Assembly (NCBI GenBank): GCA_964535955.1
Contig: CAZHVK010000015.1
Location: forward strand, 1-32,898
Origin: an uncultured Methanosarcinales archaeon
Lineage (GTDB): Archaea > Nanobdellota > Nanobdellia > Woesearchaeales > CAXGTL01
Reading direction: 5' to 3'
Length of the DNA stretch: 32,898 bases
The translations under genes were made by a program, and so were the position numbers. Below are positions 6,570-28,586 of the stretch, piece by piece. Positions within the stretch are counted from its first letter, which is position 1. Every line of letters begins with the position of its first letter. The notes below the pieces were generated by a model that made no database searches, was not told where the DNA came from, and saw only the letters and a list, made by a program, of their open reading frames with translations.

Positions 6570-7581
6570 TCATTTCCATGAAACCTCTACCTCATCAGTT
6601 CTCCAATAAGGCAAAACCTTTGTATGTTTCACATCTTTAATCTTTCTCATTGCATTATATTCAAGAATACCTTGCCATGCAATCATTGCAGCAGCATCAA
6701 TCAAGAACTGTGGCTCTGGTATAAAACATTTAGCATCTCTTTCATAACACATTAACTTAGCCATCTCTTGCAGATGAAGATTACATGCTACACCACCGCC
6801 TAACAATAATTCATCTTTACCACAATGCGCCATTGCTCGTTCAGCAACTTCAAGCAGCATTGCAAAACATGTTTCTTGCAATGAAAAACATAGATCTTCT
6901 TTAGTATATTTACCAGAATCAAACTTTTGCTTTAGATTAGTTAGGATGCCACCAAATGAAACATCCATTCCTTTCACCACATATGGAATCTCGATAAGAT
7001 TTTTACCTTTAATAGCTAATTCATAAACTTTTGGTCCACCTGGAAAACCTAAGCCAATATACCTAGCAAAAGTATCCAAAAAATTACCAGCACCAATGTC
7101 AAGTGTTTCACCAAATATCCTATACTTGCCTCCTTCTAATGCAATCACTTGAGTATTTGCACCTGATGCATAAAGCAGCACAGGATCTTTTGCACCTGTC
7201 ATTGCTTTGCCAATTGTCAAATGTGCAATGCAATGATTAACACCAACTAATGGAACTTTTAATTTCAAAGAAATATACCGAGCAATAAATGCACCTATCT
7301 TCAGCATGTGCCCGATTCCTGGTCCTCTTGAAAAAGAAACAAGATTTATATCTATCCACTTTAATCCACTCTTATCAAGAGCTTCTTTCAAAACCTTATC
7401 ACAACATTCTACATGATGATCAACAACTTCAACAGGTTTCATTCCACCTTTTTTTGTGATAAAACTATCTCTAACATTAGAATACACTTTTTTTTGATCA
7501 TCCATTATTGCTACACCGAATGTATCTCTGCCTTTAGAGTGCAGTACTTTCGATGCCTAAACAGATTAGTTTTTTTGGCAT
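6570..7581 (-). CDS. kae1: KEOPS tRNA N6-threonylcarbamoyltransferase Kae1; two exons, 7581-7539 and 7525-6570 (332 aa if spliced)
   Basis: Motifs RGPGIG, VNHCIAHL, ASGANTQ, GETLDIGAGNFLD and GGVACN. The N-terminus MPKKLICLGIESTA-H-TFGVAI is restored only by removing 13 nt. The TATA box at 7612 is 31 nt before ATG 7581. Confidence 0.95.
7526..7538 (-). other. Putative 13-nt BHB/BHL-type mRNA intron in kae1 (UCUAAAGGCAGAG)
   Basis: Exon-exon helix with 11 of 12 pairs, a 3-nt AGA bulge, a 4-bp CUGC/GCAG helix and a 9-nt loop. Cuts at AC|U and AG|A rebuild the His codon CAU. The unspliced frame reaches TAA at codon 16. Confidence 0.85.
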
Positions 7582-7605: not shown

Positions 7606-7612
7606 TTATAAA
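7606..7612 (-). promoter_or_regulatory. Archaeal TATA box of the leaderless kae1 transcript
   Basis: TTTATAA with an A-rich BRE-like region upstream. The 29-31 nt TATA-to-ATG spacing is the same at 6260/6291, 8813/8843, 14251/14280, 16805/16836 and 24094/24125. Confidence 0.7.
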
Positions 7613-7682: not shown

Positions 7683-8789
7683 ATAATAAAAAAAACATTA
7701 TTAACAATTCTTGCATTATTAATCACTACAACAAGTAATGCTTATCCTATTGGTGAACCAAAAGAAGTCTACATACCAAAATCAGCAACAACAACAAAAG
7801 AACTTAAACAAACATATGAATCAATTGAAGACGCAATTGAATTCCATCTGAATGTAGCTGAAAATTTTATTAATAAAGGAATGTTAGAAAATGCAAAAAT
7901 TCACATAAATAAAGCAAATATTTTAGCAGGATGCACTGATATTGATATTTCATATGAAACAAAAGATCTTTTAACAACAGGAATAATGACTTTTCTTGAA
8001 GATTATAAAAAAATATTTCCTAAGCATTATAAATGTTCACAAGATCTGGATATAATGGAAAGCTTAATTTCTTTATCTAGAGAAAATGAACTTTACATAG
8101 AAAAAGAAATAATTGATCAATTTGGATATATGGAATATCAATTTTTATTAAAAAAAAAAGAACATAATCAAGAGATGAACAAAATATTGGAATATGGAAC
8201 AGCATTACACCTAAAAATAAAAACAGAACAATACAAAATAAGATTAAAAGGTAAAAGAAGAGCAAGACAAAGAGTTCAATCAGAATTAGATGAAATAAAA
8301 AGAAAACACAAATTAGAAATAGAAATTGCAGAAGAAAAAGCAAGACAAAGAAAATGGGAAAAAGAAGAAATAGCAATGAACAAAGCAAGAGAAGAAGAAA
8401 AAGAAAGACAAAGAAAATTAGAATGGGAAAGAAAAATAAGAGAAAAAGAAGAAAAAGGAGAAGTGGAAACAAAAGAACCAACAATAGATTATTCTAAGAT
8501 CAAAAACATAATATACCATGTAGTAATATATGAATCATCTGAAGAAGAATATCAAAAACTAATAAAGTATGAAGGATATGAAAATGCCCCAAGAGCGATT
8601 ACAGAACCTGCAAGTTATAAACATTTCACAAAATATGAAACAAGATTGACAAAAGAACAAGCATTAGAAATTTTGGTTGGTGAAAAACTAATTCTTGATC
8701 CTGAAGAAGAATTTGTAAATGAGTTGATGGATAAAGCATTATTTGAAGAACAGGAATATTCTATTGTTAAGATTGAAATAATTAGATAA
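7683..8789 (+). CDS. Secreted coiled-coil hypothetical protein; true start lies upstream of the track's 7881
   Basis: The frame is open upstream of 7881 and encodes a signal peptide (IIKKTLLTILALLITTTSNA|YP) with no in-frame ATG, GTG or TTG. The middle of the protein is an E/K/R-rich coiled coil. Confidence 0.7.
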   Translation: MIKKTLLTILALLITTTSNAYPIGEPKEVYIPKSATTTKELKQTYESIEDAIEFHLNVAENFINKGMLENAKIHINKANILAGCTDIDISYETKDLLTTGIMTFLEDYKKIFPKHYKCSQDLDIMESLISLSRENELYIEKEIIDQFGYMEYQFLLKKKEHNQEMNKILEYGTALHLKIKTEQYKIRLKGKRRARQRVQSELDEIKRKHKLEIEIAEEKARQRKWEKEEIAMNKAREEEKERQRKLEWERKIREKEEKGEVETKEPTIDYSKIKNIIYHVVIYESSEEEYQKLIKYEGYENAPRAITEPASYKHFTKYETRLTKEQALEILVGEKLILDPEEEFVNELMDKALFEEQEYSIVKIEIIR

Positions 8790-8842: not shown

Positions 8843-10753
8843 ATGCTCACAGCAGAAGAACTTATCAATAAAGTACTTGAATATAATCCAAAAGCACATG
8901 TTTCTTTAATCAGAAAAGCATATGATTTCTCAAAACAAGAACATGGTGAACAGAAACGTGATTCAGGTGAACCATATTTTGAACATTGTGTTGCAACAGC
9001 AGAAATCCTTATAGAAATGAAACTAGATTCATCAACAATATCAGCAGGTTTATTGCATGATGTTATTGAAGATACAAAGATCAGATCACACACAATTGAA
9101 GAAGAATTTGGAAAAGAAATCCTTGACTTAGTACAAGGAGTTACAAAAATAAGAAAGATTGACATTGGTGAAACAGAAGAAAGAAAAGCTGCTACTGTTA
9201 GAAAGATATTATTAGCAACATCAAAAGATATAAGAGTTATTCTAATCAAATTAGCAGATAGACTTCATAACATGAGAACATTAAAATTTAAACAAGAAAA
9301 AGTACAAAAAAAGATTGCACAAGAAAGTCTTGAAATATATGCACCTGTTGCACACAAACTAGGGATGTACAAAATAAAATCAGAAATAGAAGATTTATCA
9401 TTAAGATATCTTCATCCAAACATTTATCAAGATATTAAAAAGAAAATAGCAGAAAAAAAAGATGAAAGACAAGAAAGAGTTAATAGAATAATGAGTATAA
9501 TAAGAGAAAAATTAAAAGAATCAGGAGTCCAATTTGTACACATCTATGGAAGAGCAAAAACATTTTATTCAATATATAGAAAACTTGATAGAAAAGGTGG
9601 TCATTTTGAAGACATTTATGATTTGATTGCTATTAGAGTTATCACCAAAATAAAAGAAGACTGTTACAGAGTTTTAGGAGTCATACATTCTAATTGGAAA
9701 TATTTAAAACAGGAATTTGAAGATTTTATCGCAAATCCTAAACCAAATGGTTATCAAAGTCTTCACACTGCAATCCTATTTGAAAAAAAACCAATTGAAA
9801 TACAAATAAGAACAGCAGACATGCACGTTGAAGCAGAAGAAGGTATTGCAGCACACTGGAGATATAAAGGAACAGAAAGAGACAAAAGATTTGACAGAAA
9901 AATAGCTTGGTTAAAACAATTCCTCGACTGGCAAAGAACATCAACAACAGCAAAAGATTTAATTGAAACAGTAAAGATTGACTTATTTAAAGATGAAATC
10001 ATAGTTTTCACACCCAAAGGTGATCCAATCGCATTACCAGAAGGTTCTACACCAATTGACTTTGCATATGAAATTCATTCAGAAATAGGTGACAAGTGTG
10101 CAAGATCAAAAGTCAATAATATACTAGTAAGTTTATCACACCAACTTAATAGCGGCGACGTTGTTGAGATCATGACACAAAACAATGCAAAACCATCCAG
10201 GCAGTGGTTAACATTTGCAAAAACAAACCATGCAAAAGCAAAGATTAGACAAGCTTTAGGAATACAATTTGATGATAGAAGAGTAAAAAAATATGAAGAA
10301 GGGTCCAAAAAAGATTTAGAAAAAGAAATAATTGTTGAAAAAGAAACAAAACCAAACATAAGATTATCAAGATGTTGTGGAGTTAATATTGGTGAACCAA
10401 TAATAGGATTTAAAACAAAAGACAAAAAAATAGCGATTCATGCACAGGATTGTCCAAATGTGGATTCAATGCTTAATCTTAAAAGAGTAATTGTAAGCTG
10501 GAAAAAAAAGAATAAAGAACAAAACATAAAAAAATTAGTTATTACTGTCAGAGACAGACTAGGATTATTAGCAGACATATTAAATATAGTAACAGTCTCA
10601 AAAATGAACATAAAAAGTATAAACTCAGAACCAAAAAAACAAAATATCCAAATAAATATGAATCTAGAAATAACAAATGAAGAAAATTTTAAAAAACTAG
10701 TTAATTATATTAAAGGGATACCAGGAATTGTTGGTATTAATGTTATGGGGTGA
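8843..10753 (+). CDS. rel: Long RelA/SpoT homologue, (p)ppGpp synthetase/hydrolase (HD-SYNTH-TGS-ZFD-ACT)
   Basis: Motifs RDSGEPYFEH, LLHDVIEDT, KLADRLHNMRT, GRAKTFYSIYRK, PKPNGYQSLHT, EIQIRT, TPIDFAYEIHS, RCC...H..DC and ACT DRLGLLADI. Confidence 0.95.
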   Translation: MLTAEELINKVLEYNPKAHVSLIRKAYDFSKQEHGEQKRDSGEPYFEHCVATAEILIEMKLDSSTISAGLLHDVIEDTKIRSHTIEEEFGKEILDLVQGVTKIRKIDIGETEERKAATVRKILLATSKDIRVILIKLADRLHNMRTLKFKQEKVQKKIAQESLEIYAPVAHKLGMYKIKSEIEDLSLRYLHPNIYQDIKKKIAEKKDERQERVNRIMSIIREKLKESGVQFVHIYGRAKTFYSIYRKLDRKGGHFEDIYDLIAIRVITKIKEDCYRVLGVIHSNWKYLKQEFEDFIANPKPNGYQSLHTAILFEKKPIEIQIRTADMHVEAEEGIAAHWRYKGTERDKRFDRKIAWLKQFLDWQRTSTTAKDLIETVKIDLFKDEIIVFTPKGDPIALPEGSTPIDFAYEIHSEIGDKCARSKVNNILVSLSHQLNSGDVVEIMTQNNAKPSRQWLTFAKTNHAKAKIRQALGIQFDDRRVKKYEEGSKKDLEKEIIVEKETKPNIRLSRCCGVNIGEPIIGFKTKDKKIAIHAQDCPNVDSMLNLKRVIVSWKKKNKEQNIKKLVITVRDRLGLLADILNIVTVSKMNIKSINSEPKKQNIQINMNLEITNEENFKKLVNYIKGIPGIVGINVMG

Positions 10754-14279: not shown

Positions 14280-14693
14280 ATGAAAATCGCAATCTGTGGA
14301 AGCATGAGTTTTTCAAAAGAAATGATTGAAATAAAACAACAACTTAACAATAAAGGCCATGAAGTCATACTACCACATTCAACAGAACTCTATGCAAACA
14401 ACACTTTATCAGCAGAATCTAGAAAAGAATCAGCAGAAAACAAGATAAAGAATGACCTGATAAGAGATTATTTTAAGATAATACAAGACTCTGACGCAGT
14501 TCTAGTCACAAACTTTACAAAAAACAATATCAACAATTATATTGGTGGCAACACTTTTCTAGAAATAGCTTTTGCACATGTATTAGACAAAAAAGTCTTT
14601 TTATTAAACCCAATTCCAGAAGTTTCTTATTCTGATGAAATAATTGCAATGCAGCCTGTTGTTTTGAATGGTGATTTGGATAAAGTTGAATAA
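14280..14693 (+). CDS. Nucleoside 2-deoxyribosyltransferase-like (flavodoxin-fold) small protein
   Basis: MKIAICGSM...GHEVILP...SDAVLVTN...YIGGNTFLEIAFA...LNPIP; paralogue of 19648-20079. Confidence 0.7.
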   Translation: MKIAICGSMSFSKEMIEIKQQLNNKGHEVILPHSTELYANNTLSAESRKESAENKIKNDLIRDYFKIIQDSDAVLVTNFTKNNINNYIGGNTFLEIAFAHVLDKKVFLLNPIPEVSYSDEIIAMQPVVLNGDLDKVE

Positions 14694-16835: not shown

Positions 16836-17603
16836 ATGAAACAGCAAAAACAAAAAGATATTACTCAAAATATTCTAGAAAAAGTAACAGATCATCTTTG
16901 TCAAAAATACAAACATCTTGGCAATCCTTATGAAGATAATATGGCTTTAGGATTAAAATATGATGAAGAATTTACACAAGATGAACAAAAATCATTAAAA
17001 GAATCATTATCAGCAATTGGCTCACAAACAATCACAATAAGGCAATATTATGATCATTTCAACATACTTCCTGAACATTCTCAAATAATAAAAAAAATAC
17101 AACAAGTTAATCCTAATAAAGATTATATTGAATGGGAACATGTTAATGTTAGTTTACCAACAGGCACGATACATTCAATAGATACTTATCTTGAGCACAT
17201 GATACCAAAACAAATGATTGATATAACAGAAAAAAAGATTAATAAATTAAAAGAAGGGATATATAAACATTATCTCAAAAGATATAACAATCCTATGGGG
17301 CTATATAATACATTTGAAAGAAGAGCAAAAAGATTATGGGATAAGATATCATATGCTGTTCAAGATTCTTTATTCTTCTTTTTTTCAGGATTTACAAAAA
17401 TCATTGTAAGAGAACCTGAAGAAGACTATATCAAAAAGGGTTTATTAATTGGTTTAGGAAGAGCAATGTCAGACCTTGAGAATGATATTCAGATACCAGA
17501 GGTTTTATTAGCAACTTATTTTAAATTCGAGAAAAAATTGCAAAGAGAAGATGAAGAATATAAGCTCCAGAAGGCTTCTAATCACCAGATTCAAGCATTT
17601 TAA
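16836..17603 (+). CDS. Hypothetical protein
   Basis: 255-aa ORF with a TATA box 31 nt upstream. Confidence 0.75.
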   Translation: MKQQKQKDITQNILEKVTDHLCQKYKHLGNPYEDNMALGLKYDEEFTQDEQKSLKESLSAIGSQTITIRQYYDHFNILPEHSQIIKKIQQVNPNKDYIEWEHVNVSLPTGTIHSIDTYLEHMIPKQMIDITEKKINKLKEGIYKHYLKRYNNPMGLYNTFERRAKRLWDKISYAVQDSLFFFFSGFTKIIVREPEEDYIKKGLLIGLGRAMSDLENDIQIPEVLLATYFKFEKKLQREDEEYKLQKASNHQIQAF

Positions 17604-17710
17604 ACCCCAAATAACAACTTTCTAAACCATAAATTCTCATTATCACAAACCCTATTTACAAGCCTTCTAGGGCTCATTTACTACTTAAAAGTAACTAAAA
17701 TATGGAAAGA

Positions 17711-17762
17711 TTTATATACTAGTTCTAGTTCCTTATGCATAATATGTATAATTCTATACATA
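17711..17762 (+). promoter_or_regulatory. TATA box plus palindromes at the head of the small-gene array
   Basis: TTTATATA at 17711, palindrome TTATGCATAA at 17733-17742 and inverted repeat TATGTATA-attc-TATACATA at 17743-17762. Confidence 0.55.
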
Positions 17763-17788
17763 AAAAACACATAAGAGGTACATAAAAA

Positions 17789-18193
17789 ATGCAAATACCA
17801 CTATACAAAGGAACCATAACAATAGACCAAAAAAACAAAGTAGAATGTGAACTAAAAAACAATGGTCCAATTGACAAACCATTTGAATTATCATTTAGAC
17901 ATTATTACAAAAAAACAGATGAACAAGAATTCAAAAGATCATATAGTCAAAAAGATGAAGGAATTCTATATTTTAACAGACAAGGCAAAATTATTGACAG
18001 ATCTCCAATGAGCAAACACAATCCTACAAAACAATTACAAGAAAAATATTCTATACCACTTTCAATATCATTAGCAAGCTTAGTAAGTGGAAATAAAGTA
18101 AGAAATCTTATATCAGGTTTTTTTTCAGGTGAGAATGGTATTGATCCAGAAGCAAAAGAATATGTAAGATTAACATTTAAAGAGGAATTATAA
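17789..18193 (+). CDS. Hypothetical protein, first gene of the array
   Basis: 134-aa ORF with SD GAGGT. Confidence 0.75.
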   Translation: MQIPLYKGTITIDQKNKVECELKNNGPIDKPFELSFRHYYKKTDEQEFKRSYSQKDEGILYFNRQGKIIDRSPMSKHNPTKQLQEKYSIPLSISLASLVSGNKVRNLISGFFSGENGIDPEAKEYVRLTFKEEL

Positions 18194-18195
18194 AT

Positions 18196-18378
18196 ATGAA
18201 ACAATCAAGACCAATGACAAGGATATTATCACCATATGAAACTCATGATAAAGAAAAAGTTACAGAAAAAATTGCAGAACATCAAGCAAAAATATTACCA
18301 AGTCAAGAATACACATTAAGAGAAAAATACAAATTAGTACGAACATTGATTGATAATATGATTGAAATGGAAAGGTGA
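18196..18378 (+). CDS. Small hypothetical protein
   Basis: 60-aa ORF with SD GAGGA, tightly packed with its neighbours. Confidence 0.65.
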   Translation: MKQSRPMTRILSPYETHDKEKVTEKIAEHQAKILPSQEYTLREKYKLVRTLIDNMIEMER

Positions 18379-18385
18379 AAATAAA

Positions 18386-18607
18386 ATGACAGAACATTAC
18401 AAAGAAATATTCAACAAAAAAGAACAAGAACTAGAACCATCAATGCAAAGTGTTGAATGGTATGATACTAAAGTTCCTGGAAAAACAGTTGTGTTTCTTG
18501 CAAAAGGCAAAGCAAGAGACATAAGTGCAAAGCTAAGCAAAGCTGCTGAGGCAGAACAAAGAGAAAAAGAAATATTAGCTAAAAGTTTATATGGAATACC
18601 AATGTGA
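18386..18607 (+). CDS. Small hypothetical protein
   Basis: ATG 18386 follows AGGTGA; protein begins MTEHYKEI. Confidence 0.7.
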   Translation: MTEHYKEIFNKKEQELEPSMQSVEWYDTKVPGKTVVFLAKGKARDISAKLSKAAEAEQREKEILAKSLYGIPM

Positions 18608-18618
18608 GGCAAAATAAA

Positions 18619-19050
18619 ATGGAAGAACAAACTATAGATAAAATAGTCAAACAAAATGTACAAAAACTAAGAAAACCAAAATTACACAATGGCATAGACT
18701 TTAACACAAAATTAGCAGATTCAGAAATAGATTATCATACAGTAAAGATAGAATATAATACACAAACAGGTGAAATAACAACAAGGCCTGCACAGCATGA
18801 CAAGGGTAAGTTTTCTGAAATAACATTAGCATGGAACAATGACGGCACATATGGATTCAGACCTTATAATAATCCATCAAATGCAACTCACAGATTATCA
18901 GATGATGACAGAAATAAATATCTGGTTACTGATTGTTTTGGCACAGAACCAGGTGACAAGGTTTTAGAACAATCTATTCAAGTTTATAATGCTTTAAGAA
19001 CATATGGTGAAAAGCATTCTAAAACAATAAATAAACAAACTAAAAGGTGA
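18619..19050 (+). CDS. Hypothetical protein
   Basis: ATG 18619 follows GAGG. Confidence 0.72.
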   Translation: MEEQTIDKIVKQNVQKLRKPKLHNGIDFNTKLADSEIDYHTVKIEYNTQTGEITTRPAQHDKGKFSEITLAWNNDGTYGFRPYNNPSNATHRLSDDDRNKYLVTDCFGTEPGDKVLEQSIQVYNALRTYGEKHSKTINKQTKR

Positions 19051-19056
19051 AACAAA

Positions 19057-19314
19057 ATGTGTGAACACGAAATGGAAAAAGAACAAGTACAACCAGAAGT
19101 AAAAGTTGATTTAAAAGAAATACCTGAATATAAACCAAGAACAAAACTTAGGTTAAAAAGAAAACCAACTAAAGAACAAAATTTAGAAGGAAAATTCTAT
19201 GACAATTATGATCAAAGGATTGAATTAATGGATGAACAAGGTAATATATTAAAAACTCGTCCAACAGGCAACAAATATCCTGATACAAAAACATTCAATG
19301 AAATGTTATGGTAG
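19057..19314 (+). CDS. Small hypothetical protein
   Basis: 85-aa ORF with SD AGGTGA. Confidence 0.68.
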   Translation: MCEHEMEKEQVQPEVKVDLKEIPEYKPRTKLRLKRKPTKEQNLEGKFYDNYDQRIELMDEQGNILKTRPTGNKYPDTKTFNEMLW

Positions 19315-19325
19315 GTGAAAATAAA

Positions 19326-19637
19326 ATGACAAAACTATACAAAGAAATACACAGACAAACAGTTAGATTCCCAGCAGATGACAAAGATTTTGCAAAAGCA
19401 AAAGCATTCTTTGGTTATCATCCTGGAGACAAATTTATAGCAGACGTTGCTGTTTTAGACTGTGGTGAAGAAAAAGTATTAGGTAACAGATATGTTATTG
19501 ATATCAAGATAGGTGACACTGGTTCAACACCAACATATGTGCCAGCTGGTGAAAACCTAGAAGATGCAATCAAATTATGCAAAAAGGTTTGTACAAGAGA
19601 AGAAGCACTTAAATGGCATACAATGGATTATAATTAG
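19326..19637 (+). CDS. Hypothetical protein
   Basis: ATG 19326 follows AGGTGA; protein begins MTKLYKEI. Confidence 0.72.
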   Translation: MTKLYKEIHRQTVRFPADDKDFAKAKAFFGYHPGDKFIADVAVLDCGEEKVLGNRYVIDIKIGDTGSTPTYVPAGENLEDAIKLCKKVCTREEALKWHTMDYN

Positions 19638-19647
19638 GTGAAATAAA

Positions 19648-20079
19648 ATGAACATATTCATAGTATGCAGCAAATACTGTTATGACAAGGTTGAAGCAAT
19701 TCAATCTAAATTAGAAGACATGGGACATAGTGTTATGTTGCCAAATGTGTTTGATGACCCATTTTCAGAGTTTGACATAAGAGACAATCAACCTGACAAA
19801 TTTGCAGAATGGAAAGGTGCAACATACAAAGAATCACAGGAAAAGGTTGAAAGATCTGACTGTTTGCTTGTATTAAATTATGAAAAACATGGTTGTCCAA
19901 ATTATATTGGTGGAAACACTTTATTAGAGATGTATGATGGTTTTAAACTAGGAAAACCAATTTATCTTATGAACCCTATACCAGATAATATGTTAAGGGA
20001 TGAGATATTAGGATTTGGCCCTATTGTAATTAATGAAGATTTAGAAAAGATAGTAGATAAAACTAAACTAGGTGAATAA
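19648..20079 (+). CDS. Nucleoside 2-deoxyribosyltransferase-like protein, paralogue of 14280-14693
   Basis: GHSVMLP...SDCLLVLN...NYIGGNTLLEM...MNPIP; SD AGGTGA. Confidence 0.72.
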   Translation: MNIFIVCSKYCYDKVEAIQSKLEDMGHSVMLPNVFDDPFSEFDIRDNQPDKFAEWKGATYKESQEKVERSDCLLVLNYEKHGCPNYIGGNTLLEMYDGFKLGKPIYLMNPIPDNMLRDEILGFGPIVINEDLEKIVDKTKLGE

Positions 20080-20084
20080 AGAAA

Positions 20085-20270
20085 ATGATAGAATCAATTA
20101 TATCACAATCATATGTAGCGCAAACATATGCAAGAGATTATGTAAAAACAACAGCAGCACTTGCTAAAAAAAAGCAAGACAATGAAGAACCACAAGCATA
20201 TGATAATTTGATCGCGCAAAAACTACCAATAACTCCAGGAATAGGAGTCAAAATTGATTATGTTGTATAA
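20085..20270 (+). CDS. Small protein resembling the YjfB (putative motility) family
   Basis: 61 aa with the pattern alaKKkqD...PGIGVKID.VV; family resemblance judged by eye. Confidence 0.5.
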   Translation: MIESIISQSYVAQTYARDYVKTTAALAKKKQDNEEPQAYDNLIAQKLPITPGIGVKIDYVV

Positions 20271-20281
20271 GAGGAATAAAA

Positions 20282-20863
20282 ATGACAAAACCAACAACCA
20301 CAACAAAAAGATTCATTATAACAGCAGCAATAATTGCTGGAGCATTTGGACTAATAAAACGTCATGACATTGCAGCAGCTTTTGAAGCACATAAACTAAG
20401 AAATGCTACATCTAACCCAGACATTGTTGCAGAAGAAATATATAAAAACCTACCAACTCAAATGCCATTTGATGATTATGAATGGAGAATACCTTGTATT
20501 GTTTATGAGCCTGAAGCAACAGGTAAAGGTGAACCAATATATCTTCATAAGAAAACAGGTGTGCTAATATTAGCAGATGAAGAAGATAATCCAGTAAGAA
20601 TAGACAAACCATCAGCAATCAATAAAGTAAAGATAGATGCTTACATTCCACAAAGAGACGTAAAAAGATTCTGGACACTTGCAAAAGACATGATGTTAGG
20701 AAATGTGTACAGACACAATGAAACAGGTAAACTTGCTTATATTGATGAATATTCAAGAATAAGACAGATAGTTGACAAAGTAGAAGACATAGATAGAAAC
20801 CAAGAACCAAATTATTTTGGCAAAGATCCAATTGAACAGGATTATCCTAGAAAAGAAGAATAA
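20282..20863 (+). CDS. Hypothetical protein with an N-terminal hydrophobic anchor or signal
   Basis: N-terminal KRFIITAAIIAGAFGLI; SD GAGGA. Confidence 0.72.
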   Translation: MTKPTTTTKRFIITAAIIAGAFGLIKRHDIAAAFEAHKLRNATSNPDIVAEEIYKNLPTQMPFDDYEWRIPCIVYEPEATGKGEPIYLHKKTGVLILADEEDNPVRIDKPSAINKVKIDAYIPQRDVKRFWTLAKDMMLGNVYRHNETGKLAYIDEYSRIRQIVDKVEDIDRNQEPNYFGKDPIEQDYPRKEE

Positions 20864-20865
20864 AA

Positions 20866-21060
20866 ATGAATATAGTAAAACCACTAGATAGACAACCGAG
20901 AAAAAAACAATTAGAAAAACAAATACCTAAAGTTAATGTTGACTATACAATGCTCTATGTCGTAGTAGACATGTATCAATTTGAATATTTAATTAATCCA
21001 ATAAGGTGTTTACAAAGGACTTATGCAAGTCTTGGTTATGACATTAATAAAACCAATTAA
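20866..21060 (+). CDS. Small hypothetical protein
   Basis: 64-aa ORF that fills the gap in the array; weak SD. Confidence 0.55.
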   Translation: MNIVKPLDRQPRKKQLEKQIPKVNVDYTMLYVVVDMYQFEYLINPIRCLQRTYASLGYDINKTN

Positions 21061-21070
21061 GGTAATAAAA

Positions 21071-21211
21071 ATGCAAGAATTCACTTTAACAAAACAAATA
21101 AGCAAACATGGAAAGCAAGCAATAATTGTTATTCCAAAGATTTTGCAGAACCAACTTCAACCAAAGACATTGGTTGAGATAAAGATTAAAGTATTGAAGG
21201 AGGCTGAGTAA
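21071..21211 (+). CDS. AbrB/MazE-like swapped-hairpin small DNA-binding protein
   Basis: MQEFTLTKQISKHGKQAIIVIPK...LVEIKI; SD AAGGT. Confidence 0.6.
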   Translation: MQEFTLTKQISKHGKQAIIVIPKILQNQLQPKTLVEIKIKVLKEAE

Positions 21212-21213
21212 AA

Positions 21214-21933
21214 ATGAGCTCATACGGAACAGTTGTAATAAGAGAAAAAGATGGAAACACCCACATTCATAATGCAAATCTAGCATTATCATGGATAGTT
21301 GAGAATATAAGATTTATTGAAAAGTCACCTGAACTAATAAAAGGATTTTTAGATGTAGGATATGATATGTTAAAACATGTTGCACCAACAAATTCAGGAT
21401 TAATAGTACTAGACCAGATGAAAGACAAAGTAATAACATATACACCAGGAACAAATCATGCTTTTGGATTGTTATCAACTATATCAGTTAGTTATTATTT
21501 AAGCTTAAACAATGGAAATGTAAAAGCAAGATTAATAGACAATGCTCCTACTGACCTAAAACCAGAATTAATTGGATTTTATATTGATAATTTTGATTTA
21601 GAGCCAGTTAGATTAAGAGAATTTTATGAACAAGGTAAAGTTAAACACTTAATAGAATGGAATCCAAAAGAACAAGATTATTCAGGGAAAATCAGAAGCA
21701 TAGAAGGAATGTCATTAGAACAGATTGGACTTTTAGCTTTACAAAATAAGAGACCTAGCAAAGCATTTGCTCTGGACATGGCTCCTTATGAGATGATTGA
21801 CTTTCTTACACCAATGGGTGCAGTAGATTGGGAAACAGCAACACAACAAACTAAAGAATTACTAACAGAATTAGGATTCAATGTAAATCACAAAGAATGG
21901 GATAAATGGAAAAAAGAATGGGATGAGGAATAA
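21214..21933 (+). CDS. Hypothetical protein
   Basis: 239-aa ORF with GGAGG upstream. Confidence 0.75.
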   Translation: MSSYGTVVIREKDGNTHIHNANLALSWIVENIRFIEKSPELIKGFLDVGYDMLKHVAPTNSGLIVLDQMKDKVITYTPGTNHAFGLLSTISVSYYLSLNNGNVKARLIDNAPTDLKPELIGFYIDNFDLEPVRLREFYEQGKVKHLIEWNPKEQDYSGKIRSIEGMSLEQIGLLALQNKRPSKAFALDMAPYEMIDFLTPMGAVDWETATQQTKELLTELGFNVNHKEWDKWKKEWDEE

Positions 21934-21948
21934 TGGAGGAAAACTAAA

Positions 21949-22212
21949 ATGACAAATGAAAAATATACAATGTTTAAAAAAACAGCAAGGGTTAGTGGTT
22001 TAGTCACTGTACTTGCAGGAGCAGCATTATTACTAACTTCATGTGCAGACATGGATGCTGGTAGACAAAAATTAGAAAAAAAAGTAGAAAGATATGAACA
22101 AAAATTAGAAAAAAAGGATATAACTAAAGCAAGAGATGATTTTGAAGCAAAAGTTTACAAATATGAAGATAATATTGAAAAAAAGCTTAAAAAATCATTT
22201 TATGATAATTAA
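21949..22212 (+). CDS. Small lipoprotein
   Basis: Hydrophobic stretch ending in the lipobox LTS-C; SD GGAGG. Confidence 0.7.
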   Translation: MTNEKYTMFKKTARVSGLVTVLAGAALLLTSCADMDAGRQKLEKKVERYEQKLEKKDITKARDDFEAKVYKYEDNIEKKLKKSFYDN

Positions 22213-22233
22213 TAATATAGAGGTTGAATAAAA

Positions 22234-23022
22234 ATGAGACAAATAAAAACATTAAAAGAACTATTAGACTTAGATAGTCTAAGAAACATATCAAATGTTG
22301 TGAGAAAAGAAATAAGTACTGCACATCCAAACTCAGATGTAAGTTATGTATATGAAAATCTTTGTACTACAAAAGTAGTTTATTTTGAACCTGATAAAGC
22401 TGCAGAAAAAATGCCTGTAAAAAGACCATCTGTATATGACAATCTATGTATTATATTAGACACAAGCGGTTCAATTGTCTTTAATGGACACGAAAAAAGT
22501 GAAAATTATAAAGCAATGAAAAAAGGAACACAACAAGCATTTGAAGCAGGAATTGGAGACGGTAAAAGAAGAGATTATGCTGTAATCAATTTTTCAGCTG
22601 GAACTATTAGTTCTGGATGGATTCCAAAATCAAAATCAAATAAATTAGGCAGTACAATAAATAAAGTTTTTGCTGGAGGATCAAAACTTAATACTGATAC
22701 TTTAGACAAATTATCATCTGAACATGAAACTTTTAGTTTAATAATGATAACAGATGGATGGATAGGAAATGGTGCAGAGGTCATTTCAAAGCTAAAAAGA
22801 TTATATGATCAAGGCTGTGATATAAACATAGTATACATACCTAATAGTCAAACTATACCTGATGAGATTATAGAAATGAATGAATTTGCAACAGTCTATT
22901 TAACAGAAAGTCCTGAAGGAATAAAACAAGAAATGAAAGACATAACAGATATCAAAGTATATAGAAAAGGAATTAAATCTCAAATAACTAAAAGAAGAGA
23001 TTATAATATATTAATTGATTAA
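22234..23022 (+). CDS. von Willebrand factor A (vWA) domain protein
   Basis: MIDAS IILDTSGS, VINFS and IMITDG; SD GAGGT. Confidence 0.85.
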   Translation: MRQIKTLKELLDLDSLRNISNVVRKEISTAHPNSDVSYVYENLCTTKVVYFEPDKAAEKMPVKRPSVYDNLCIILDTSGSIVFNGHEKSENYKAMKKGTQQAFEAGIGDGKRRDYAVINFSAGTISSGWIPKSKSNKLGSTINKVFAGGSKLNTDTLDKLSSEHETFSLIMITDGWIGNGAEVISKLKRLYDQGCDINIVYIPNSQTIPDEIIEMNEFATVYLTESPEGIKQEMKDITDIKVYRKGIKSQITKRRDYNILID

Positions 23023-23042
23023 TTTTTTTATTTTATTTTTTT
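23023..23042 (+). terminator. Oligo-T tract after the vWA gene, candidate archaeal terminator
   Basis: TTTTTTTATTTTATTTTTT immediately after the stop codon. Confidence 0.45.
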
Positions 23043-23073
23043 AAAATCAGAGAGAGGAAAAAATAAAACTAAA

Positions 23074-23343
23074 ATGCTAAAAAAACTACTTTCAAGAATC
23101 GATGCAAAAGGAATGATACCTCATGTAGGAAAGATTATTGGATTTAAACATAATAGTATTATATTCAAGACAAATGTTCATCAAAGAGAATATGGTATGC
23201 AGATTAAAGAACAAGAACTTAAGAAATTATTAGACATGTATGGTGTTTCAGACAAAGAATATTTAAAAGATAAGCATGTTATTACATTATGGAAAGAATA
23301 TCCAGACCAAAAATGGATAAATGGTATAATACCAATAGTATAA
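23074..23343 (+). CDS. Small hypothetical protein
   Basis: 89-aa ORF with GAGAGG upstream. Confidence 0.65.
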   Translation: MLKKLLSRIDAKGMIPHVGKIIGFKHNSIIFKTNVHQREYGMQIKEQELKKLLDMYGVSDKEYLKDKHVITLWKEYPDQKWINGIIPIV

Positions 23344-23365
23344 TTAAGCACAAGGGGGGTAAGAA

Positions 23366-24100
23366 TTGCAGACAAATGAATCAGAATCTATAGATGACAA
23401 AATAGATCAAACAATAGATCCTGAATATAAAAGAAAGACAAAAAGAAATTTAGTAATCTTAATGATTTATTCATTATTTCTAACAATAGGGTTCAAACTA
23501 ACACTAAGCTATATGATGGATAAAAAGATAAACCAAGATAGTAATCAAGAAAAATCAATTGAATTAGCACAATTACCTCCTGCATATTATAAAATACCAA
23601 AACAAGAGCTAGAAGAAAAAAACATTCTCCAACAAGATCTTGAAAACAGAACAATGGTAGTCATGAGTAATTCCTTAATAAAAGATTTTATGAAATCAAG
23701 AAGACAAAGAATCACTTATTTTACAAAATACTTATCAAGATTAGAAAAAAATTATAGAATGCAACCAACAACTAGCTTACCAATATGTCTAGATATAAGA
23801 CCAGGAGAATTTAGACACAAAATACATCCATATGAAAGAGTTATAGTGGTTGGTACAGATTGCATTATAGATGGAATAAAAAAAGAATATAATGATGACT
23901 TAATAGCATTAGGAATATATAATCAAATATTGCATTACATAAACCTTCCACAACAAGAACCAAGTATCCAAACACTTGCTGCAGAATATACTACACTTCT
24001 CAATGACAAGAAAGCAATCAATAACAATGAATACCTAGGTATATTACAAGTATGGCAAACAGCAGTAGATATAAAACAAAGTAAACCTCAAGATTTATAA
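23366..24100 (+). CDS. Membrane-anchored hypothetical protein
   Basis: TTG start after GGGGGGT; one hydrophobic segment (LVILMIYSLFLTIGF). Confidence 0.72.
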   Translation: MQTNESESIDDKIDQTIDPEYKRKTKRNLVILMIYSLFLTIGFKLTLSYMMDKKINQDSNQEKSIELAQLPPAYYKIPKQELEEKNILQQDLENRTMVVMSNSLIKDFMKSRRQRITYFTKYLSRLEKNYRMQPTTSLPICLDIRPGEFRHKIHPYERVIVVGTDCIIDGIKKEYNDDLIALGIYNQILHYINLPQQEPSIQTLAAEYTTLLNDKKAINNNEYLGILQVWQTAVDIKQSKPQDL

Positions 24101-25854: not shown

Positions 25855-28545
25855 TTATTTATTCGCATTATAATGCTGTTTAATTTCTTTTGCAGTTAAT
25901 TCTCTTCCATATACCCTAAAATCATCTAATGCACCTACAAATGCAGGAGCACTTCTTGTCTTTGAACCGATTACAGGATAAATATGCCTTCCACTAGCAG
26001 ATGCTGCAGCAAATACTCCTTTTGTTTCAACACCATTAATATAAATACTCATTCTTCTTTGTTTATGATTCCAAGTAACTGCTAAAAAATACCATTTATT
26101 ATTAGGAGGAGCCTTAGTTGAAATAACTGTTGAAATTTGGTGTGCATTGTGTGGTTTTAAAATCAATCTATCAGTTCTAAGATCAAAATTATTGAATTTT
26201 CTAATCATTCTAATTGTTTCAGCATAAATCACACCATCACTCTCTTTCTTGATCCACATAGTAATACTTCCTAAACCTGCACTAATCAAACCTTTCTGTG
26301 CACCTGTTTGTGGTTGAACAGCAGGAGGAAATTGTTTTGCTTTCCCAAACTTACCAGCAACAAAAGGACCAGTATCAGGACAATGTTGCTTTCCAATAGA
26401 ATCTTTTCCATTTCCATCAAACTTATAATGAACATCTAATTGTTCAGAACTTAATTGTGTCTGGACACACGCATTATTCTTACATTTTTTGCCAGCACCA
26501 CAAGCAATATTTCTCTTATCTAAACAAGGATCAGAATCAGAATAAATACATCTTAAAACAGTTTTGCCATCAGCACTGCATGATTTAGGATTATACTTTG
26601 CACAATCATTTTTACAACATTTTGCTATTCCTTTAGGAGTATAACACTTTGCATCTGTACATGTTTCTTGTTTTTTCCAAGAAGTACACCCATTGCTGCC
26701 TTTTTTACAAATCAAAACATCATATTTATTAACAGAATCACACTTAGTTTGTGCTTCTGTGCATTCATCAGTACATGTTGCAACACATTGACCACCTGAA
26801 CATTCTTTACCACCAACACATGTACCACAACTTAGTGTACCACCACAACCATCAGAATGACTACCACATTCCTTGCCTAATTCTGTACAAGTCTTTGGAA
26901 CACAACTAACAACACATCCACCATCTTGACACTTCTCATTTTCACCGCAACCAGTCCATTCACCACCAAATTCTAAACAACCATCTTCATTAGCATCAAC
27001 ACAGCCATAATAACCAGAAAATTCATCATCACATTGTGTTTGTTCTTCAGAACATTCATCAGTACATTCTATCACTTCTTCTTCATCTTCCTCTACTACT
27101 TCCTCCTCTTCACCTTCTGCTTCTCCTTCACTAGTAATAGAAACATCTTGACAAACTTCATCAAGATCAATTGGCCATTTATTCCAGCCAGCTCTTTCTT
27201 CTAAACATGCTTGATAACCAGCACCTTTTGGACATGGTGGAATTGGTGAATTATAACATTTGCCCTCAGAAGTTAATATGTCTAATGGATGTCTGCAGCA
27301 ATCCATACCAGTTTCTTCAGTAATAGTAAATTCATTTTTATCATCACCACAACAATATTCACTATCAACAATCCAATCAAAGCCGCATTTTTCACATGAA
27401 GCTTTATCATTATCAGGTTCTAGTTCTTCTTCAACCTCAACCTTAAAACATTGACCAATCCAATTATCAAGATTACAATCTTCATCAGGAACCCAATCTC
27501 TTGATTTATCTTTTTTTTTACATGTATAAGCTAATAAATAAATAACACCTGTTTTTGTTTCATCAGGGTCAATATTTAATAATTCTTCAACATCACCCCT
27601 TATCCAATTACTAGAACCAGCTGTTTCTTGGCTAAAGTCCATTATTGACCATTCTTCATCATGCTCACTTATCATTAAATATTTTTTATAAACATAATCT
27701 TCATCAACAATACTCAGCTTAACTTGTTCAGATGAACCAGATCCTAACAAAACACTAACATCATCTGGCTCAACATAGAATATACCAGTTGGATCACTTG
27801 GCTGCCATTCACCAAAGTCGCATCCAGTTTGTGATTCTTGTTCAACAACTTCTTCTTCAACCCCAGAATCAAGAGTTTCGACACTTTTAGTTTCTAAAGT
27901 TTTAGCAACAGGTTCTACACAATCTTCATCAACTTCACCATCACAATCATTATCACTACTATCACAAGTTGAATCATCAGATTTATACAATGAATTATGA
28001 TCTAAATAAACATTATCATCACAACCAGGCCAAGTAAGCTCATCAGTGCATGTTTCTTGTGCACCTTTACAAACACCTTGTTGTTTTTCACAATTTTGTT
28101 TTTCACCAGGAGCACAATCTCCAGTTACACAAACACCATTATCACACTTTTGATTAGACTCGCAAGTTGCATATTTTTTATCAAAGCATCCATCAGAACC
28201 TTTTACACAAGTCCATGCCTTATTACCATCACAATCTTTTTGTCCTGATGAACATTCATCAGTACAAGTTTTAATACAAGCACCTTTGTTACACTTTGTT
28301 CCAGATGGACATTGCTTTTTAGATACTTTAAAATTAGGCCAATATTTTGTACAATAATAATCATAAGCAGTATTACCTTTACAATAATCATCTCTATATT
28401 TTCTACCATTTCTCTTAATATAACCACTTTTATCATAATTATTCCTACCATCAGAATCTTCACACTTAGGTGCAGCTTGCACAAAGCCAGCAAACAATAC
28501 TAGAATAATTAAAATACATAAAATGATTATTAGTTTTTTCTTAAT
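25855..28545 (-). CDS. Secreted Cys/acid-rich surface protein with a C-terminal LamG/ConA-like domain
   Basis: The signal peptide KKKLIIILCILIILVLFAGFVQA lies upstream of the track start (28497). Contains DNDCDG and CTDEC repeats and a HYKFDG...WYFLAVTW...IYING...LDDFRVY domain. Confidence 0.85.
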   Translation of the reverse strand: MKKKLIIILCILIILVLFAGFVQAAPKCEDSDGRNNYDKSGYIKRNGRKYRDDYCKGNTAYDYYCTKYWPNFKVSKKQCPSGTKCNKGACIKTCTDECSSGQKDCDGNKAWTCVKGSDGCFDKKYATCESNQKCDNGVCVTGDCAPGEKQNCEKQQGVCKGAQETCTDELTWPGCDDNVYLDHNSLYKSDDSTCDSSDNDCDGEVDEDCVEPVAKTLETKSVETLDSGVEEEVVEQESQTGCDFGEWQPSDPTGIFYVEPDDVSVLLGSGSSEQVKLSIVDEDYVYKKYLMISEHDEEWSIMDFSQETAGSSNWIRGDVEELLNIDPDETKTGVIYLLAYTCKKKDKSRDWVPDEDCNLDNWIGQCFKVEVEEELEPDNDKASCEKCGFDWIVDSEYCCGDDKNEFTITEETGMDCCRHPLDILTSEGKCYNSPIPPCPKGAGYQACLEERAGWNKWPIDLDEVCQDVSITSEGEAEGEEEEVVEEDEEEVIECTDECSEEQTQCDDEFSGYYGCVDANEDGCLEFGGEWTGCGENEKCQDGGCVVSCVPKTCTELGKECGSHSDGCGGTLSCGTCVGGKECSGGQCVATCTDECTEAQTKCDSVNKYDVLICKKGSNGCTSWKKQETCTDAKCYTPKGIAKCCKNDCAKYNPKSCSADGKTVLRCIYSDSDPCLDKRNIACGAGKKCKNNACVQTQLSSEQLDVHYKFDGNGKDSIGKQHCPDTGPFVAGKFGKAKQFPPAVQPQTGAQKGLISAGLGSITMWIKKESDGVIYAETIRMIRKFNNFDLRTDRLILKPHNAHQISTVISTKAPPNNKWYFLAVTWNHKQRRMSIYINGVETKGVFAAASASGRHIYPVIGSKTRSAPAFVGALDDFRVYGRELTAKEIKQHYNANK
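26942..27047. repeat. 106-bp exact repeat shared with 29872-29977
   Basis: Base-by-base comparison. A second exact block of 60 bp links 26754-26813 to 29540-29599. Confidence 0.9.
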
Positions 28546-28586
28546 CTATACCACCATTTTTTTATACATTTATATGTTTAAAATAA

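Follow-up and report, generated by a model that had tools for sequence, protein, structure and literature searches.

Introns of the bulge-helix-bulge (BHB) type inside an archaeal coding sequence are known, in the literature searched and from the text available, from cbf5 only, and their origin has been called unclear. The accessible portion of one study describes the cbf5 introns of Crenarchaeota as 16-44 nt long and splitting a catalytic Asp codon after its first letter, with no nuclease found (Yokobori 2009, PMC2738675). In the available part of a later report, on a BHB intron in the 5' untranslated region (UTR) of Haloferax HVO_1309, cbf5 is given as the sole further example in mRNA (Schwarz 2020, PMC7714728). 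Archaeal rRNA BHB introns of the I-DmoI type encode LAGLIDADG endonucleases, as summarised in one section of PMC2738675, and collaborative or trans homing by free-standing endonucleases has been described for phage group I introns in the accessible text of a review (Edgell, PMC2988022). In this work we analysed a stretch of 32,898 nt from an uncultured archaeon (contig CAZHVK010000015.1), here called the window, in which the essential t6A (N6-threonylcarbamoyladenosine) synthesis gene kae1 is interrupted by 13 nt. The evidence given below suggests that the insert is very probably a BHB intron spliced from the kae1 mRNA, and the free-standing LAGLIDADG gene linked to the kae1 introns of other genomes is reported here as new. 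No kae1 intron was found in published work, the literature searched leaving out most subscription journals and supplements, and a term check of the text available for PMC12397907 and for a 2026 preprint on Asgard tRNA introns returned nothing on kae1 or DPANN mRNA.

The kae1 gene lies on the minus strand. From the ATG at 7581 it reads MPKKLICLGIESTAL and then runs into a TAA stop at codon 16 (7536-7534). Deleting 13 nt (7538-7526), which fall within a His codon, yields the GIESTAHTFG motif and a frame of 332 aa (14 + 318 codons). Exon 1 (7539-7581, minus strand) comprises MPKKLICLGIESTA plus C, the first base of the His codon, and is delimited by the sequence, the frame and the absence downstream of positions 1-16 of the TIGR03722 model. 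Exon 2 (6570-7525, minus strand) holds 318 codons with the split His, including the metal-binding HxxxH (HCIAH) and the C-terminal Asp motif, and scores alone 405 bits on TIGR03722 (cut-off 375). The start chosen by gene callers is an internal ATG of exon 2 at 7505, and the resulting 311-aa open reading frame (ORF) matches the model from position 17. A TATA-like box, TTTATAA (7606-7612, minus strand), stands 31 nt ahead of the ATG at 7581, with similar spacing in three intronless genus-mates; its position would place the transcription start at or near 7581. A first-pass annotation had proposed this arrangement from the letters alone, and its coordinates, early stop, restored frame, promoter box and exon pairing were all confirmed in the sequence. 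Its expectation of misannotation was also borne out, as public sets hold the truncated 311-aa Kae1 and another carrier has been called with a false N-terminus. The second, intact kae1 that might have relieved the broken one was looked for, and this genome, rated 100% complete, has one kae1 only.

On the RNA, exon positions 7556-7545 pair with 7524-7513 at 11 of 12 positions, with the mismatch A7548.A7521, while CUGC at the end of exon 1 (7544-7541) pairs with GCAG of the insert (7531-7528). Two bulges, ACU and AGA, flank this 4-bp central helix, and the predicted cuts (AC/U and AG/A) would release 7526-7538. The 9-nt loop described earlier has the right length and not the right structure: it consists of a 3-nt bulge and an inner stem of one pair, C7537-G7532, closing a UAAA loop (7532-7537), and it contains the in-frame UAA (7534-7536). 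The fold of this copy by itself is modest (z -2.19; 5 of 200 shuffles equally good). A loose genome-wide BHB scan ranked the insert 8th of 1916, after four tRNA-like and three other matches, and among the 15 filtered candidates of this genome it was the only convincing case that joins a frame. No second convincing mRNA intron was found in this genome among inserts of 10-60 nt with at least 7 of 8 exon pairs and an inner pair, limits under which weaker motifs would escape. It is the comparison with relatives that raises the insert above chance.

The first-pass annotation had proposed that inserts at the same position, with covarying helices, should be sought in relatives, and these were found. 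Among the first 30 kae1 loci inspected, 28 were intronless, including all three genus-mates, and a genome of another family (G005) carried at the same kae1 site a 13-mer identical to the intron of the window. A scan of the order by protein motif and gap only was positive in 6 of 401 genomes, belonging to six families, with none for a reversed-pattern control. A scan of GTDB without imposed structure gave 54 loci, namely 39 kae1 loci (38 genomes, 33 distinct inserts of 12-30 nt) and 15 chance matches. A metagenome scan with part of the helix imposed returned 78 loci, 71 of them confirmed as kae1 by tblastn and the remaining seven short or cut downstream. The carriers amount to at least 42 species-level genomes (38 from GTDB, three found through the endonuclease described below and this genome), a lower bound because the collection patterns fix several codons and allow only gaps of 5-35 nt. 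Both collection scans required GGC as the Gly codon, and the metagenome scan required GCNG; for this reason only the GTDB set was used to count covariation. By the cutting rule, nearly all loci yield the His codon and a frame of 312-342 aa where the contig allows (263 in L069). An intact second kae1 was present in only 2 of the 38 other carriers; the bins with two copies, one of them intronless, are G405 (L257 and L266) and G418 (L267 and L268).

By title, the carriers are mostly Woesearchaeota or Nanoarchaeia, plus Aenigmatarchaeota, Iainarchaeum and Micrarchaeota, and thus mostly DPANN. Three are titled Methanosarcinales, of which at least two duplicate genomes of the same order. One is titled Baldrarchaeota, a label that stays unverified because NCBI titles are unreliable here; its kae1 has Clp1-like and Sua5 genes as neighbours, and the genome has two EndA genes. 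Other breaks of kae1 (30 low-scoring or split matches, nine inspected) turned out to be protein loop insertions, assembly gaps and a one-base shift, with no BHB introns among them. Separately, seven loci (L051, L056, L059, L060, L065, L066 and L068) encode Kae1 with in-frame loop insertions of 20-30 residues, at several sites and not BHB-shaped.

The structure is under selection. In the GTDB set the central helix is complete in 37 of the 39 kae1 loci and in none of 16 chance matches, as CUGC/GCAG (25 loci), CCGC/GCGG (8) or CAGC/GCUG (3), and the third base of the Thr codon covaries with its intron partner. This variable pair is Watson-Crick in 32 of the 33 distinct introns, against a mean of 16.5 and a maximum of 25 when partners are shuffled. 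Of the 39 loci, 38 retain the first pair inside the insert (C-G, U-A or A-U), as do 32 of the 33 distinct introns (shuffles: mean 11.5, maximum 23), which makes the family a strict helix-bulge-helix-bulge-helix (hBHBh') and not a bulge-helix-loop. Across 30 aligned loci, 96.3% of cells are paired compared with 27-44% for slid partners (95% for the 5' strand of the exon-exon helix, 7545-7556; its 3' strand, 7513-7524, is assigned from the fold and the family alignment). Both sides have changed in 30 of these cells against 7.1 in shuffled data, a value reached by 0 of 500 shuffles; two of the five covariation measures are not clearly above shuffles (pairs with change, 30 of 500; further pair types, 267 of 500). 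The exon-exon helix averages 8.7 of 9 pairs in the 39 carriers and 5.8 of 9 in a control set of 45 intronless genes (5.75 for the 12 that have GGC). This control set includes loci of G335 and possibly G184, flagged unpublished. Codon choice differs likewise: the Ser codon is AGT in 32 of 39 carriers and 4 of 45 intronless genes, and the His codon CAT in 39 of 39 and 21 of 45. The earlier appeal to C-ending codons as support is only partly retained, GGC being imposed by the search patterns and the other exon codons indeed shifting. All parts of a BHB intron were found in sequence, namely the central helix, two 3-nt bulges, the exon-exon helix, the inner helix h' and encoded EndA and RtcB.

A further regularity is the stop codon. 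In the frame of exon 1, a stop occurs in 69 of 70 distinct inserts, compared with 23.2 (standard deviation 3.7, maximum 36) when the interior is shuffled, and the other two frames hold stops in 14 and 12 of the 70. The insert lengths spread over the three phases (27, 23 and 20 of 70), and all 20 inserts of length 3n contain an in-frame stop. The stops are TAA (47), TAG (12) or TGA (10) at varying codon positions. Being over-represented and varied in type and position, the stop is maintained and not merely inherited; it would bar a full-length dead Kae1 from the unspliced message, whatever the length of the intron.

Both enzymes proposed for splicing were sought in this genome and are present, as one 214-aa EndA gene and one intact RtcB. 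The EndA aligns to the Methanocaldococcus jannaschii enzyme without an insert between Tyr and His, which we take to be catalytic, and an EndA lacking a loop insert fits the strict motif. The first-pass annotation had expected a relaxed motif and a broad-specificity EndA to cut it; the strict BHB across the family means that such an enzyme may not be needed. No EndA beta subunit was detected in this genome with PF01974 or PF02778, profiles that a diverged one could escape. Among the other carriers, EndA is found in 37 of 38 and RtcB in 31 of 38. Ten tRNAs of this genome pass the Rfam cut-off, and several tRNA genes carry introns at position 37/38 and in the T-loop that are mostly invisible to ARAGORN and Rfam (37/38 or T-loop introns at C5:34140, C7:45525, C7:65833, C9:49454, C9:58952 and C2:55495), in a catalogue by in-silico excision that is incomplete and contains false calls. 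The introns in the T-loop imply that EndA works away from the canonical site in this genome. The genes cbf5, rtcB, rnhB, bud32 and sua5 are unbroken, and the gatE profile matched two open frames with no telling break.

In other genomes, rtcB itself is interrupted. In 12 of the 38 kae1-intron carriers it has breaks at two recurring sites, and BHB-like excisions restore its motif in 6 of 13 parsed loci. One or two BHB-like inserts of 17-32 nt occur in L281 and L288-L292 (G420, G402, G401, G437, G415 and G403), and in two more carriers intein-sized frames split rtcB at the second site.

The second main finding concerns mobility. Immediately upstream of kae1, on the same strand, 25 of 123 intron loci and none of 28 intronless loci have an ORF of about 330-440 aa (24 of 98 among the intron loci with at least 900 nt of upstream sequence). 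It contains two LAGLIDADG motifs with acidic residues (consensus FAYLLGxxVGD and FLQGLADSDG), and its structural model (predicted local distance difference test, pLDDT, 88.9) finds its best fold matches in PI-SceI, TliVMA and I-DmoI, and also I-Tsp061I (E 2e-7 to 2e-4). This putative endonuclease occurs in 11 of 38 carrier genomes, every time next to kae1, and in 2 of the 401 genomes of the order, both of them intron carriers (15/80200 if independent, calculated by hand). A search that started from the endonuclease in 251 genomes of the phylum gave five matches, four of them directly upstream of an intron-bearing kae1; three of these four loci are new, having been missed by the codon patterns. 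In 9 of 25 loci the endonuclease frame crosses exon 1 and ends on the intron stop, with the Kae1 Met inside it where inspected. Traces of insertion are also seen. In G139 a promoter and an old start, MNCLGIES, are kept about 200 nt upstream of the endonuclease, and in G466 an old start, MKNPIILGI, is kept upstream of the cassette. In bin G405, syntenic empty and filled kae1 alleles match as far as the old TATA box and once more from exon 2 onward, and the bin looks like two related organisms. Stranded starts and an allele pair of this kind are the traces to be expected of one-sided repair after a cut at the motif. No relatives of the endonuclease were found in viral contigs.

In this genome the intron stands alone. 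Neither an endonuclease of the kae1-linked family nor a remnant of it was found in this genome (best profile score 4.7 bits), and the kae1 promoter and first codons resemble those of the genus-mates. Over the 60 exon bases that start at the Gly codon, identity reaches 90% with G005, a likeness partly forced by the helix, and 68-77% with the mates; beyond them, it is 55-77% with G005 and 63-93% with the mates. This stretch (7485-7557, minus strand) is a putative co-conversion tract, and we read the intron here as a recent arrival. As a separate observation, the genome has 11 LAGLIDADG_3 matches in all, and a LAGLIDADG-like ORF (361-aa frame; C4:33218-34506) lies just upstream of the unbroken rnhB, on the same strand.

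We hypothesize that the kae1 pre-mRNA folds into an exon helix, a 3-nt bulge, the 4-bp helix, a second 3-nt bulge and a short inner stem, that EndA would cut after the second base of each bulge, and that RtcB would join the exons to give the His codon and the 332-aa Kae1, the unspliced message terminating at the UAA after 15 codons. The LAGLIDADG endonuclease encoded upstream could cut kae1 copies that lack the intron, at the GIES-TAH codons. In the repair, a donor copy would then contribute endonuclease, new exon 1 and intron, with homology on the exon-2 side only, and the old start would be left stranded upstream, while the intron, by disrupting the target, would protect the carrier. This genome would represent an orphan intron behind a native-looking promoter and start, its endonuclease either lost by recombination of old and new 5' ends or never copied. 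Spread by the adjacent free-standing endonuclease is the likely driver of the distribution. For the reading as a whole, in which the EndA/RtcB-spliced intron is the passenger half of a two-part selfish element spread by collaborative homing, we estimate a probability of about 0.8. What we observe is the sequence, covariation, stop bias, linkage, stranded old starts and a patchy tree; from these we infer cleavage, ligation, a spliced RNA and DNA cutting.

Several points weigh against this reading. The strict BHB of this copy (-12.2 kcal/mol) lies 4.0 kcal/mol above the minimum free energy (-16.2) and the bulge-helix-loop (-15.0) 1.2 above it, and the inner stem here is a lone pair not favoured by energy. 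The carriers are related, so that the shuffle counts make them seem more independent than they are. Of the 38 carrier genomes, which are incomplete, 7 yielded no RtcB and 1 no EndA. Pfam support for the putative endonuclease is weak and below cut-off (9 of 17 members, best E 6e-5), 27 of the 38 carriers, like this genome, show no endonuclease of the kae1-linked family, and the fifth match of the endonuclease-first search (L273) is a distant relative (200 bits) not beside kae1. Only 2 of the 14 cassette loci inspected (1 of 11 plus 1 of 3 new ones) showed a stranded old start, and the putative conversion tract is short as well as partly forced by the helix. Finally, the tree considered next is a quick version, with its intronless rows coming from a single order.

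The best-surviving alternative, which we consider unlikely, is that the BHB intron is real and old, was inherited vertically after one gain with many losses, as proposed for cbf5, and persists because the host uses it to restrain t6A synthesis, with the endonuclease a later neighbour. Carriers are indeed spread across several DPANN groups, deep Aenigmarchaeota-like and Iainarchaeota-like clades of the tree are wholly intron-bearing, 46 of the 47 distinct introns that have no endonuclease nearby keep the stop, and a role as negative regulator has been proposed for the cbf5 intron in the available text of PMC2738675. However, the all-intron clades were sampled without intronless members, just 6 of the 401 genomes of the order match, and the identical 13-mer recurs in 7 of the 39 kae1 loci of other genomes, in genes whose products are only 49-67% identical to the reference protein. 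In the tree, built from 34 intron-bearing and as many intronless proteins with their first 14 residues removed and loci below 290 aa excluded, the window Kae1 groups with its intronless genus-mates at 99, and the carriers that pair with intronless sisters on starred branches are this genome (G000), G139, G276 and G097; the intron label needs 13 changes, at least seven of them forced by the starred branches. The stranded starts and the empty and filled pair likewise point to insertion. The patchy distribution and the link to a homing endonuclease make a selfish passenger more likely than a host regulator.

It is very improbable that translational recoding, by frameshift, hopping or read-through, produces Kae1 in place of splicing. 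The stop right after the break and the hairpin resemble ribosome-hopping sites, of which T4 gene 60 and byps are examples. The cbf5 introns were, moreover, formerly read as frameshifts, as told in a part of PMC2738675. Against recoding, matched take-off and landing codons occur in 1 of 70 introns, the insert lengths fall in all three phases, the His position without excision would be GAT, AAT or TAT in 69 of 70, and the covarying pairs are those of a BHB.

Equally improbable is the possibility that kae1 is a pseudogene here, or that the 311-aa ORF from the ATG at 7505 is the working protein. That ORF exceeds the TIGR03722 cut-off, and this copy has an unusual Ala in a conserved motif, DAAAMI at about 6700 (minus strand) where relatives show DNAAMI or DNGAMI, a single occurrence among the spliced proteins counted. 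However, exon 2 differs from the genus-mates by 83-112 synonymous changes and 39-42 replacements in 290 codons, two to three synonymous per replacement, and Bud32 and Sua5 are intact. In Escherichia coli TsaD, according to the text available, Ser9, Cys10 and Asp11 line the substrate pocket, and Ser9 and Cys10 matter for activity (PMC7913687). By motif, the split His would correspond to Asp11 and the missing model positions 1-16 to the loop with Ser9 and Cys10, so that the 311-aa product, lacking this loop, should be dead. Other carriers are without a Met at that site, and the promoter lies before 7581.

An assembly or sequencing artefact, which a metagenome assembly and low depth in the DNA runs examined might suggest, is practically out of the question for this copy and already refuted for the family, given that inserts recur at this site in 41 further genomes and in 78 loci from metagenomes and that Logan contigs from 2 of 4 DNA runs (possibly one data set) span the insert without any difference, with no contig bridging it by 31 letters in the other two runs, in a check resting on assembled contigs, which hide rare alleles.

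Beyond the two-part element we consider, tentatively and at somewhat less than even odds, a more general possibility: that composite selfish elements exist in DPANN archaea, each with a free-standing homing endonuclease that exploits the host machinery of tRNA splicing, invades an essential gene at an active-site codon and supplies a replacement 5' end. The 12-30 nt BHB intron might then serve as immunity and, in some copies, as the endonuclease's own stop, and splicing might switch one message between endonuclease and Kae1 (or a fusion of about 735 aa). If this is true, orphan introns are footprints, and t6A synthesis would be permanently dependent on EndA and RtcB. If the introns are real, no cbf5 intron is as short as the copies of 12-13 nt, which would rank among the shortest introns known from mRNA. 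In this sense kae1 would be the second RNA-modification gene with a BHB intron in its coding sequence. The covariation is strong enough for a definition of the motif, the spread has a candidate driver that can be tested in vitro, and the case would offer a route for tRNA-type introns into protein genes. The capacity for tRNA splicing may also be linked to t6A, a universal modification. For annotation, the case is a warning that public sets hold Kae1 proteins that are shortened or have false N-termini.

The surroundings of kae1 in the window deserve a brief description. A long RelA/SpoT gene (8843-10753, plus strand; TIGR00691, 664 bits against a cut-off of 499) is divergent from kae1, and a RelA/SpoT neighbour of kae1 recurs in seven loci; to our knowledge, long RelA/SpoT homologues are unusual in archaea. 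Between the two genes lies a charged ORF of 302 aa (7881-8789, plus strand) with no Pfam or NCBIfam match, and relatives have no such gene there. Two similar small ORFs (14280-14693 and 19648-20079, plus strand) have the motif NYIGGNT.LE in common and no Pfam match. A series of short same-strand ORFs without obvious families (16836-24100, plus strand) possibly forms an island, and two large Cys-rich, acidic, repeat-bearing ORFs (25855-32897, minus strand) have a common duplicated internal domain.

Several known systems resemble the kae1 intron in part. Short tRNA introns at position 37/38, for which Fujishima reportedly proposed transposition in 2010, come close in geometry: the spliced kae1 hairpin has a 7-nt loop, CUGCACA, with the cut at the tRNA 37/38 position. 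Loops of tRNA-Cys begin with CUGCA and their introns in this order end with GCAG plus two bases, and a pattern for such introns matched 15 of 301 genomes of the order, about seven of them real-looking (G123, flagged unpublished, is one further example). A 16-nt tRNA-Cys intron in G131 is much like several kae1 introns. Since GCAG is forced by pairing, this fit shows compatibility only and not the identity of a donor; the host also differs, being an mRNA in kae1. As an observation in its own right, L254, L251, L246 and L253 hold tRNA-Cys genes whose 37/38 introns end in GCAG plus two bases and show the geometry of kae1 introns.

The rRNA introns likewise combine a BHB with a LAGLIDADG endonuclease, and the kae1-linked model matches I-DmoI and I-Tsp061I. 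In the rRNA type, however, the ORF lies inside the intron, whereas for kae1, where a protein gene is the target, it sits outside, upstream of exon 1. The HVO_1309 5' UTR intron is, as proposed for kae1, an mRNA substrate of the archaeal splicing endonuclease; unlike kae1, it stands in a non-coding position with no frame to restore, and no mobility is reported for it in the text available (PMC7714728). Phage homing offers a parallel for the arrangement, with an endonuclease-free intron in conserved codons beside a free-standing homing endonuclease and co-conversion of the flank, for which kae1 has a putative tract. Phage group I ribozymes are, however, hundreds of bases long, while the kae1 intron is a predicted host-spliced intron of 12-30 nt in archaeal chromosomes, and the kae1 cassette, unlike that of phages, carries a promoter region of its own together with an exon 1 that replaces the old one, with the endonuclease ending on the intron stop in the nine loci described above.

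The cbf5 intron, whose splicing has been demonstrated by cDNA, is a close relative in kind of the predicted kae1 intron. Both are short BHB-type introns in the coding sequence of an RNA-modification enzyme, with cuts following base two of the bulge, inserted between letters one and two of an active-site codon and often missed by annotation. They differ in gene and lineage, in length (12-30 versus 16-44 nt) and in motif, strict in kae1 and relaxed in cbf5. The EndA of this carrier is encoded by a single gene, while that of cbf5 hosts is a hetero-oligomer. The kae1 intron further differs in its near-universal in-frame stop, its patchy occurrence and its link to a free-standing endonuclease. Set beside these systems, archaeal mRNA splicing looks wider and more mobile than the searched papers describe.

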